Shown one piece after another: positions 138 through 962 of a DNA stretch of 64,000 nt; within the stretch, counting starts at the first letter, position 1, and every line of letters begins with the position of its first letter. A program made the position numbers and the translations under genes. Source of the stretch: Candidatus Giovannonibacteria bacterium (lineage in GTDB: Bacteria; Patescibacteriota; Minisyncoccia; UBA11713; 2-01-FULL-45-33); the NCBI GenBank assembly GCA_016432405.1, contig CP066687.1, forward strand, positions 42,456 through 106,455, read 5' to 3'. Under the pieces are notes generated by a model. It was not told where the DNA came from, made no database searches, and worked only from the letters and a program-made list of their open reading frames with translations.

Positions 138-962
138 TTATATTTTTTGGCACCGCGGGCAGAAATAGCCGGAGCGGCCGGAAATTTTTTTGCGGATAAT
201 TCCGGCGCGGCATCTTCGGCAGGGCTCGCCTTCTCTATCGTAAATAAATCTTTTTTCAAAATAAGCCCCTCGGGTTCCCTCGGGGTGCAACCAATCGCGC
301 ATCGTAGTGCCGCCGGACTTTATGCTGCGGTTTAAAATAAATTTGATTGATTTCCACAAATTTCTAACTTCTAATCCGCTCAAACTTCTAACTTCTCTTT
401 CTGGATGGATTTTCGCGCGCCACAAAACCTCGTCTGCGACAATATTTCCGACTCCGGCAAGATTTTTCTGGTTGAGCAGAAATGATTTGATCTTTGTCCC
501 CCTTAAGGTAAGGGGGATTAAGGGGGTTATGTATTTTGTTTTAAATAATTTCCTAAAATCCCGCAGAGATATTTCTAACGCGTCCTTTCCCAATGTCTTA
601 AAATACGGGTCGCCCAAAACTTTTTTGGAATCTCCATACCAAACAACGCCGAATTTGCGGACGTCGTGAAAAACCAAATCCCCGCCCCCACACCTATCGG
701 ATAGGTGTGGGGGTAAACCGGAAAGACAAAAGGTGCGGCGAATATGCTTATCGCGCGTTCCGTGAGGCACAATCAAAAGCTTCCCGCTCATTCGCTGGTG
801 AAACCCCAAAATCTTTCCGCCCGAAAGACAAATTAAAATCGCCTTGCCTTTGCGCTCTATATTTAAAATCTTTTTTCCGCTTAAGTTTAAAATCCGCTTG
901 CCCACAATAAGCGGCTTTAGTTTTCTTACCGTTGTTTCCACCTCCGGCAATTCTGGCATAAT
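138..962 (-). CDS. mutM: Formamidopyrimidine-DNA glycosylase (Fpg/MutM)
   Basis: The N-terminus MPELPEVETT is the hallmark of Fpg, with catalytic Pro2. It ends in a C-terminal zinc finger, CxxC...CxxC. The start was moved to the M of MPELPEV at 962, since the upstream part of the ORF overlaps a tRNA. The gene contains an in-frame palindromic repeat (see the repeat features). Confidence 0.9.
   Translation of the reverse strand: MMPELPEVETTVRKLKPLIVGKRILNLSGKKILNIERKGKAILICLSGGKILGFHQRMSGKLLIVPHGTRDKHIRRTFCLSGLPPHLSDRCGGGDLVFHDVRKFGVVWYGDSKKVLGDPYFKTLGKDALEISLRDFRKLFKTKYITPLIPLTLRGTKIKSFLLNQKNLAGVGNIVADEVLWRAKIHPEREVRSLSGLEVRNLWKSIKFILNRSIKSGGTTMRDWLHPEGTRGAYFEKRFIYDREGEPCRRCRAGIIRKKISGRSGYFCPRCQKI
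498..528. repeat. Palindromic intragenic element, family I, copy in mutM
   Basis: CCCCCTTAAGGTAAGGGGGATTAAGGGGGTT. The core CCCCCTTAA/TTAAGGGGG is self-complementary. In frame, it encodes PLIPLTLRG in Fpg. Confidence 0.7.

Follow-up and report, generated by a model that had tools for sequence, protein, structure and literature searches.

A dispersed 33-nt self-folding repeat read in frame in fpg and rsmA of Candidatus Giovannonibacteria, and its relatives in the Candidate Phyla Radiation

How does the same 33-nt sequence come to be read in frame within two unrelated housekeeping genes of one genome? The question is raised by a 64-kb stretch of Candidatus Giovannonibacteria (contig CP066687.1, positions 42,456 to 106,455; hereafter the window), in which an initial annotation had pointed to a palindromic element, here called Family I, inside both fpg (mutM) and rsmA (ksgA). 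We consider it likely that Family I is a dispersed 33-nt repeat belonging to a superfamily of short, self-folding and probably mobile elements of the Candidate Phyla Radiation (CPR, or Patescibacteria), which behaves like the Rickettsia palindromic elements (RPEs) and has a layout of the BoxC/TMECO type. This reading is carried by the repeat family itself, the insertion polymorphism of its copies and their exact boundaries, the use of reading frames, the location in loops, and the covariation of stem and third strand. We infer, moreover, that copying is what spreads the units, and that a host function is not what keeps them.

A repeat in two housekeeping genes and in other genomes

An exact pattern search agreed with the two copies that had been reported: the 33-mer CCCCCTTAA(G/A)GTAAGGGGGATTAAGGGGGTTAT, whose G strand reads CCCCCTTAAGGTAAGGGGGATTAAGGGGGTTAT, matches the window exactly twice, at 498-530 and 50267-50299, and the two copies are identical at 32/33 positions, the G/A position being the sole difference (0 of 100 dinucleotide-preserving shuffles of the window gave a match). 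Both copies lie within long minus-strand open reading frames (ORFs) and are read in frame as ITPLIPLTLRG, and Pfam confirms the hosts as mutM and rsmA. The second related palindrome announced for rsmA (CCCCTCTTACCTTAAGAGGGG, 50230-50250) was also found; since it is part of a partner unit with the same geometry on the opposite strand, the segment 50217-50299 is a single inverted doublet with a 15-nt spacer, of which this palindrome belongs to one arm. A covariance model of the unit recovers the three window units with E-values of 1e-8 to 3e-9, and the copy number known for the source genome is that of the window, namely three units and one relative in 64 kb. The features are as follows.

498 to 530, minus strand: Family I solo unit in fpg (exact pattern match; covariance-model match 491-529, E 1e-8)
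138 to 959, minus strand: fpg/mutM host gene, 273 aa, starting MPELPEVE (Pfam Fapy_DNA_glyco, H2TH and zf-FPG)
50266 to 50299, minus strand: Family I unit, left arm of the rsmA doublet, read as ITPLIPLTLRG, with the loop CTT and not CCT (model match 50260-50298, E 3e-8)
50251 to 50265, minus strand: spacer of the rsmA doublet, 15 nt, encoding KAKKS (direct sequence reading)
50217 to 50250, plus strand: partner unit, right arm of the rsmA doublet (model match 50218-50256, E 3e-9; 8/9 triads as described below)
50051 to 50869, minus strand: rsmA/ksgA host gene, 272 aa (Pfam RrnaAD, E 1e-50)
43478 to 43513, minus strand: fourth unit, putatively of the triplex type but of another family, a perfect hairpin in frame in the ORF 43275-43904 (PPPYQGGDKGEV)

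The search of other genomes that had been called for was carried out on 185,579 species-representative genomes with the 29-nt core pattern of Family I (CCCCCTTAANNTAAGGGGGNTTAAGGGGG), and gave 60 exact matches in 59 loci (below, loci of this and of the other searches are numbered with an L), while about 3e-4 are expected by chance for its 26 specified bases. Most of these matches are found in metagenome-assembled genomes (MAGs, with the taxonomic labels of their records) from very different CPR classes, namely Giovannoni-, Zambryski- and Falkowbacteria, Paceibacterota and Saccharibacteria, and a few in non-CPR MAGs. Thus, the family expected in this lineage is indeed present there, but it is not confined to it. 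The core with its TAAC end is also seen on contigs binned as Nitrospirae (L009, GC 58%), Dehalococcoidia (L001) and Gammaproteobacteria (L028, L035 and L038). Among the copies outside CPR, L018 (a Riflebacteria bin) shares its flanks with L049 from Zambryskibacteria and is probably mis-binned, and three more loci, which carry the labels Christensenella or Actinomycetota and are devoid of the TAAC end, are probably something else; the others may reflect horizontal spread. The 29-mer had 0 matches in viral contigs, and there is thus no sign of a phage vector.

The conserved flanks of the copies consist of (A/C)TAA ahead of the C-run and A-R-A past the last G-run, and three of the six frames of Family I are free of stops. 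Indeed, the same DNA is read, according to frame, as TPLIPLTLRG, NPLNPPYLKGE or PLKVRGIKGV: about 18 of the 60 copies lie inside ORFs of at least 150 aa and read NPLNPPY(L/I/F)KGE or TPLIPLTLRG, with one reverse-frame copy reading PLKVRGIKGV. The hosts identified by Pfam are LepA, MetRS (with a doublet), TsaD (at two different sites and in two frames), MiaA and a class II aminoacyl-tRNA synthetase. About 40 of the 60 copies are intergenic, and removing the element there does not restore ORFs. It follows from the reading of one DNA in three frames, and from the non-coding position of most copies, that the DNA and not the peptide is the unit. The occurrence of an identical ITPLIPLTLRG in two proteins could otherwise be taken to mean that selection acts on the amino-acid sequence, the insert being a functional module of the protein and the DNA similarity a by-product; however, this reading is refuted by the frame usage, the 32/33 nucleotide identity extends to synonymous positions, the inserts are predicted to be disordered, and we regard a protein module as highly improbable.

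Intragenic copies in stop-containing frames are essentially absent, which fits translated inserts under purifying selection and not bypassing. Translational bypass or split genes were considered and rejected, given that deletion of the element gives a long ORF in only a few loci, and that in the clearest of them (L022) it just joins two neighbouring genes. In addition, in-frame copies are co-directional with the host gene (the C-rich strand being the mRNA) in a ratio of 17:1 where the open frames predict 2:1, a bias with a binomial p of about 0.007, or about 0.03 once orthologous sites are collapsed. A last reading that the distribution bears on is that each palindrome arose on the spot, through template-switching during replication or through repair primed by a hairpin, and was not copied from elsewhere. 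Local inverted repeats are a known product of template switching, but this process cannot give the same 33-mer in unrelated genes and phyla, together with conserved non-palindromic ends and a mirror third block; for Family I, a local origin is refuted by the recurrence of this 33-mer, and we attach practically no probability to it.

Anatomy of the unit

The three window units share one geometry, in which a TAAC tag is followed by 8 nt, the first arm of a 9-bp stem, a 3-nt loop and 9 nt (4+8+9+3+9), giving 33 nt. Folding with ViennaRNA, which models hairpins only, gives as the most stable fold of Family I a 9-bp stem TCCCCCTTA/TAAGGGGGA with a 3-nt loop (DNA dG -8.6 kcal/mol, z -3.1). The core was therefore rightly described as self-complementary and able to form a hairpin, but the pairing that had been named for it, CCCCCTTAA/TTAAGGGGG, is an alternative fold which makes use of a third block. 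On its minus strand, the fpg solo unit reads ATAAC-CCCCTTAA-TCCCCCTTA-CCT-TAAGGGGG(A), and on the plus (G) strand it consists of a pyrimidine arm CCCCCTTA, the loop AGG, a purine arm TAAGGGGG, the loop ATTAA and a third strand GGGGGTTAT. The partner unit of rsmA reads ATAAC-TCCCCCAG-CCCCTCTTA-CCT-TAAGAGGGG on the plus strand and is translated antisense as SPLKVRGAGGVM.

This three-block order is general in the superfamily. Along the G-rich strand, a pyrimidine arm is followed by the purine arm that pairs with it (stem of 9–11 bp, 3-nt loop), and, after a further loop of 2–5 nt, by a G-rich block that ends in GTTA and mirrors the purine arm. A simpler description as tag, spacer and hairpin, similar to that of repetitive extragenic palindromic (REP) sequences, was dropped when the 'pseudo-arm' proved to be a mirror repeat: the tag and its C-rich pseudo-arm are the complement of the G-rich block which mirrors the purine arm. 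Among 25 units, neither the TAAC tag nor the CTTA-NNN-TAAG apex varies, 92.4% of stem cells are paired (vs 80.8% in shuffles), and double changes occur at 7/11 stem pairs, always from C:G to T:A, so that one arm stays pyrimidine and the other purine. Applying the published triplex criteria (a pyrimidine block, a purine block and a reverse-Hoogsteen mirror block with G.G-C, A.A-T and T.A-T triads, stems of 6–15 and loops of 1–6 nt; PMC4666352), purine-motif triads can be written at 8/9 positions in Family I and 8/9 in its partner, and at 10/11, 10/10 and 9/9 in others, with 6–10 consecutive triads in 21 of 23 units. The third block covaries with the stem, since the mean number of triads is 7.65, vs 5.30 when stems and third blocks are mismatched. 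Beyond a simple palindrome, the sequence of the unit is thus laid out as a putative class II (purine-motif) intrastrand triplex.

A unit may stand alone or be joined to an inverted unit of another type, giving a doublet of 80–140 nt. For roughly half of the copies in other genomes, an inverted partner lies 10–70 nt away, and the partners differ in stem sequence. As single-stranded DNA, the rsmA doublet folds into a three-way junction or a long hairpin (dG -19.8 kcal/mol, z -2.6). A variant intergenic doublet of about 140 nt, TCTAACC...GTTGCGCGGTTT-Family I-TTAGA, is found in different CPR classes (L012, L014, L034, L037, L041 and L050), where it lies just upstream of genes and is followed by a TATAAT-like box 15–40 nt before the start codon; this variant may carry or adjoin promoters. 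The fourth unit of the window has the opposite orientation to the other three, and on its minus strand shows a pyrimidine arm CCCCTCCTT, the loop ATC, a purine arm AAGGAGGGG, the loop ACAAA and a third strand GGGGAGGTAA, the mirror repeat being read by eye; the covariance model gives it weak matches only (43478-43524, E 0.02–0.03).

Insertion sites, protein loops and conservation

The fpg gene of the window is apparently intact. Its product, identical to the NCBI protein HYW15_00315 of Candidatus Giovannonibacteria, aligns over its full length with solved Fpg structures (E 6e-36), and orthologue alignments show that the catalytic and binding motifs of both Fpg and KsgA are intact. Note that the mechanical ORF spans 138-998 with a 5′ extension overlapped by a tRNA-Arg(CCG) gene; because this tRNA occupies 966-1038, the real start is the ATG at 959. 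The other tRNAs of the window are Pro at 59-129 and Arg at 63833-63904, and an Rfam scan of the window found these three tRNAs only at the gathering threshold.

Orthologue alignments support a lineage-specific insertion in both genes. Between ...FKxLL.. and (G/T)KIKxFLLNQKNLAG, 14 of 29 Giovannonibacteria-type Fpg orthologues are empty, and the others carry varied Pro/Gly-rich segments at the same site. The empty orthologue L064 reads KLF-RSQK|TKIK, where the window has ATAACCCCCTTAATCCCCCTTACCTTAAGGGGG at the bar, and in the codon alignment with L064 the insertion is exactly 33 nt or 11 codons, corresponding to 498-530 (ATAAC...GGGGG). In L060, with an fpg gene 93% identical, and in L008 (63% identical), the element occupies the same place in the same phase; in L063, the same 33-mer is shifted by 2 nt and read in another phase as NNPLNPPYFKGE, and L146 has a doublet at the same site. 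Solo units in two phases, a doublet, and other families in other orthologues suggest that the fpg site has been hit repeatedly. For KsgA, the closest orthologue (79% identity) does not have the Family I element. The doublet sits in the linker joining the methyltransferase domain to the C-terminal domain (the alignment with PDB structures ends at residue 191), and in orthologues this linker has taken many different inserts of the hairpin type, which makes it a hotspot. The orthologue without Family I (L061) has in the same linker its own palindrome, AGACGTCCGACGTCT, encoding the peptide LRRPTS, which is common to several orthologues.

The inserts were expected to fall in loops, and this is what the AlphaFold models predict, with coil at both sites. 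The predicted local distance difference test (pLDDT) score is below 50 at residues 142–150 of Fpg (mean of the model 81), and, within the KsgA coil 194–219, at residues 197–205 and 211–216 (mean 83). The inserts are thus predicted to add floppy surface loops in coil or linker regions.

The element is far more conserved than the genes that host it. Compared with L008, the window fpg is 63% identical outside the element and 32/33 inside; compared with L063, the values are 74% and 32/33. The chance of at least 32/33 matches at p = 0.63 is about 5e-6, so that a loop which is translated but neutral, and has come down from a common ancestor, would not remain so similar. This conservation may be read as repeated hits on the site, homogenisation against other copies or selection on the DNA itself, three readings which the data do not separate; since occupancy differs among orthologues, we lean towards an fpg site that is permissive, and possibly preferred, and at which insertion or replacement has recurred. 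A rival reading is that the motif is a host-beneficial cis element under selection at every place where it is found, neither selfish nor mobile, be it a DNA site that binds a protein or forms a structure, or an RNA hairpin for the control of translation, mRNA stability or termination; its intragenic presence would then be a tolerated side effect. The 32/33 identity against 63% for the gene, the recurrence of the same 29-mer across CPR classes and the covariation of stem and third block would all agree with it, as would the intergenic doublets, often just upstream of genes and followed by TATAAT-like boxes, and the resemblance of the G-rich block plus GTTATG to a ribosome-binding site with a start codon, which for DUF559 genes (see below) is the actual start in 25 of 76 loci. 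However, copies are found well inside essential genes that have nothing to do with one another, in three reading frames and at positions that are not homologous; they are missing from many orthologues, no T-run for termination is present, and the E. coli relatives were not found to be linked to gene function, to distance or to operon layout (PMC4666352). Such an element would not account for the repeated hits on the fpg site either, with solos in two phases and a doublet. We thus consider a host-beneficial cis element unlikely.

Other short repeats are read in frame in the same window. A second family forms plain hairpins, TTTA-CCCCCACACC..GGTGTGGGGG, with a 13–14 bp stem and no third block, and is in frame in three genes, at 685-713 (fpg), 60743-60771 (PNPase) and 62876-62904 (XerC-like integrase); its copy in fpg is a 30-nt net insertion with an AlphaFold pLDDT below 50, absent from the 93%-identical L060, which makes a clean filled/empty pair. 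GC-rich palindromes, GCCCGCCTGCCGGC..GGCAGGC, are in frame in several genes and give PASPAGG-like peptides (9938-9966, 10337-10361 and 10861-10882 in UvrB; 2219-2243; 34002-34023; 55289-55310; 59044-59071), and peptides similar to their products (PARQQGRD, ARLSDGQGRD) are scattered in Fpg orthologues. In KsgA, a second insertion hotspot follows GDxLK (50549-50597), where the window has direct repeats of the AAAATTGAAAATTGG type (IFNFQFPIFNKF) and orthologues have various hairpin-type peptides (AVKPPSGGLTA, PLKVRGARGVM, PLLRKERG and others). A 129-nt direct repeat, 87% identical, is also present at 5514-5642 and 5980-6108, 466 nt apart.

DUF559 genes, known repeat systems and origin

Which enzyme might move such units? 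In L002 (a Giovannonibacteria MAG, 6148-6579), a Family I unit is followed by a 133-aa ORF and then by a partner unit of the rsmA type, and this ORF is a DUF559 protein (Pfam, E 2e-32). DUF559 is a very large family of unknown function and, to our knowledge, not a known transposase. Within the PD-(D/E)xK nucleases, it is a member of the Vsr clade, as is the homing endonuclease I-Bth0305I (PMC3424549; PMC3239194). DUF559 genes are found in four of the 59 core loci, each adjoining a unit, and a metagenome scan with an alignment of these four proteins gave 80 loci (L065–L144) from CPR and groundwater metagenomes. With a detector that demands the TAAC tag and a near-perfect C-first hairpin, 57 of the 80 contain units. 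The density of units within about 120 nt of DUF559 gene ends is 24x that elsewhere, and a unit lies within 60 nt of 52% of DUF559 ORF edges vs 10% for other ORFs of the same loci. Orientation is biased as well: upstream, the GTTA end points toward the gene in 38 loci vs 5, and downstream, the TAAC end does so in 35 vs 7. As an example of how close the contact may be, 25 of 76 DUF559 start codons lie within ...GGGG(G)AGTTATG (...GGGGAGTTATG), and many DUF559 stop codons are the TAA of TAAC. The units flanking DUF559 in L111, L115, L123 and L137 are near-identical to the two rsmA units, both rsmA unit types flank the gene in L002, L111, L115 and L123, and in L002, L065 and L066 the gene lies inside a doublet. 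The physical association of units with DUF559 genes is thus plain, and DUF559 may move or maintain the units; alternatively, the gene would home beside units, or the units would be its expression signals.

The flanking of a gene by doublets could also be that of an integron, with doublets as attC-like sites, DUF559 genes as cassettes, and intragenic copies as ORF-less cassettes placed by a tyrosine recombinase. In integrons, attC boxes are RYYYAAC/GTTRRRY, and the doublet ends TAAC...GTTA do resemble R''/R' boxes; the doublet is 80–140 nt long, folds and has imperfect inverted symmetry, GTT[ATG-ORF-TAA]C with a doublet behind it looks like a cassette, and XerC-like integrases occur in the window and beside the element in L022. 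However, DUF559 is the sole gene between doublets in L093, L124 and L135, with no array of diverse co-oriented cassettes, and loci with long flanks show the order doublet, DUF559, doublet, doublet, which we liken to a REPtron or to a cluster of bacterial interspersed mosaic elements (BIMEs) and not to an integron array. Solo 33-nt units cannot be attC sites, only TAAC/GTTA is conserved of the 7-nt boxes, the left junction of the rsmA doublet has no GTT remnant, and no IntI-type integrase was identified at the loci examined. With no cassette arrays, the integron reading was rejected, and we regard it as very unlikely.

Among known systems, the closest in structure to the CPR units are the BoxC/PIT/TMECO repeats (Hoyne et al. 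2000; Holder et al. 2015, PMC4666352). In E. coli MG1655 there are 23 TMECO copies, nearly identical to one another and all intergenic, which include five inverted pairs of two types; triplex formation was seen in vitro, the loci are linked to rearrangement, and no mobiliser is known (PMC4666352). Both groups have the three-block layout on one strand (with loops of 3 and 2–5 nt in CPR), a length of 33–37 nt with short loops, a very high identity between copies, solos and inverted pairs of two types, no known transposase and a copy beside a DUF559 gene; in addition, many copies share a TTA second loop (...AAGAGGGG-TTA-GGGGAGTTAT in CPR vs ...GGGGAGAGGG-TTA-GGGTGAGGGG in E. coli). In E. coli, the DUF559 gene is ycjD (NC_000913, 1,351,407-1,351,760, minus strand; L145), and TMECO no. 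9 lies 168 nt downstream on the same strand (1,351,204-1,351,239), a proximity with an estimated chance of about 0.003 for 23 TMECOs in 4.6 Mb; the locus is present in only 3378 of 5426 complete E. coli genomes. We also looked beside other E. coli TMECOs for leftovers of the ycjD 3′ side, but the spacer is not repeated and occurs at 1–2 places per genome, and the idea was discarded. Unlike TMECO, the CPR stems have an A/T apex, CTTA-NNN-TAAG, and a third strand ending in TTA(T) with T.A-T triads, and CPR units are often in frame in housekeeping genes whereas TMECO is reportedly always intergenic in MG1655, which is a property of one species and not a structural criterion. The sequence homology is only partial and could be convergent, and triplex formation, seen in vitro for TMECO, is proposed for the CPR units.

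The resemblance to RPEs that was first suggested holds for behaviour, but not for size and sequence. RPEs are about 100–150 bp long and lie in frame in unrelated genes, adding a peptide at fold-compatible positions (PMC10969869). Like them, Family I is a repeated self-complementary element in frame in unrelated housekeeping genes, at permissive places, in a host-dependent bacterium with a small genome; in contrast to RPEs, which are confined to Rickettsia and relatives, it is 33 nt long (83 nt for the doublet), of the putative triplex type, read in three frames and found across CPR classes. REP sequences, including their REPIN and BIME arrangements, share with CPR units a hairpin of 20–40 nt that is bordered by a short conserved tag and, on its other side, by a short conserved tail, frequent inverted doublets or clusters, and a single-copy nuclease gene bracketed by repeats, and intragenic REP copies are known, many in replication and repair genes (PMC3733652). 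However, the REP tag is GTAG or CGTC whereas that of CPR units is (A/C)TAAC, 8 nt from the foot of the stem and part of the third-strand block, and the bracketed gene is an HUH/Y1 REP-associated tyrosine transposase (RAYT) in one case and a DUF559 PD-(D/E)xK endonuclease in the other; no RAYT was seen at the loci examined, whole genomes not having been searched. Finally, doublets recall MITEs (miniature transposable elements of the inverted-repeat type) by ends that resemble terminal inverted repeats (TIRs), with (A/C)TAAC and a C-run at one side and a G-run and GTTA(T/G) at the other, by a length below 200 bp, by the long stem or three-way junction and by in-frame fusions, but the fpg and rsmA junctions have no target-site duplication, no parent insertion sequence with a recognised transposase was found, and solo half-elements are common. 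Our literature search found no description of in-frame palindromic, MITE- or RPE-type elements in CPR, and no paper tying DUF559 to BoxC/TMECO. What is new compared with the literature found is the frequent in-frame residence in core genes across CPR, the recurrent use of loops, a conservation far above that of the hosts and the tight DUF559 association.

Altogether, we propose the following course for a mobile repeat. A solo unit inserted into fpg, adding exactly 11 codons, and a doublet lies in the linker of rsmA. Copies would survive in genes as the length of the unit preserves the reading frame, three of six frames are free of stops, and the peptides encoded by C-runs, G-runs and TTA/TAA are Pro-, Gly-, Leu-, Lys- and Arg-rich; they would persist where the protein tolerates a loop, so that surviving copies would mark permissive sites. 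The DUF559 endonuclease would move or maintain the units, its genes being bracketed by them as RAYT genes are by REPs. In a wider and tentative proposal, which we hold to be possible but rather doubtful, BoxC-type triplex repeats would be the non-autonomous partners of DUF559, forming a REPtron-like selfish system which extends from CPR to E. coli (ycjD with TMECO), uses a nuclease without the RAYT fold and colonises CPR coding sequences in frame, hitting the same permissive loops again and again.

Several points weigh against the interpretation of Family I as a mobile repeat of this kind. Family I itself has given neither a transposition event nor a target-site duplication, nor a presence/absence polymorphism that is both clean and recent: the closest fpg orthologues with an empty site are only about 70% identical, and the clean filled/empty case provided by the 93%-identical L060 belongs to a different hairpin family. 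Selection on a function, and not mobility, could be the reason why the 29-mer is nearly identical in different phyla. The triplex would form by virtue of the symmetry of the sequence, which is the ground on which it is proposed, and the inserted peptides are presumably translated, judging from their open frames. No DUF559 gene is present in the 64-kb window, and none from the 651-kb source contig was among the top 120 homologues, which is not evidence of absence. In addition, the gene lies inside a doublet in only about 5 of 80 loci, and the commonest layout, with tag ends toward the gene, is not the one predicted for a simple TIR transposon and its deletion derivatives.

Much of bacterial diversity belongs to CPR/Patescibacteria, whose genomes are tiny and gene-dense. 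Many odd Pro/Gly-rich insertions in CPR proteins would be explained by a repeat family residing in essential genes; such a family would bear on orthologue alignments, phylogenies and structure models, and would mark recent exchange of DNA between CPR classes. The case also extends the RPE idea, in which selfish DNA is a source of new loops in proteins, to an element that is much shorter and to another part of the bacterial tree. If the REPtron-like DUF559 system is real, it would have reshaped the surfaces of Fpg, KsgA, MetRS, TsaD, LepA and MiaA in genomes with almost no intergenic space. The BoxC/PIT/TMECO repeats of E. coli have been on record since the 1990s, with neither a function nor a mobiliser known for them, and the association with DUF559 provides a direct and testable hypothesis for both BoxC and DUF559, in E. 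coli with YcjD and TMECO. The finding is of interest mainly because these two questions become testable.

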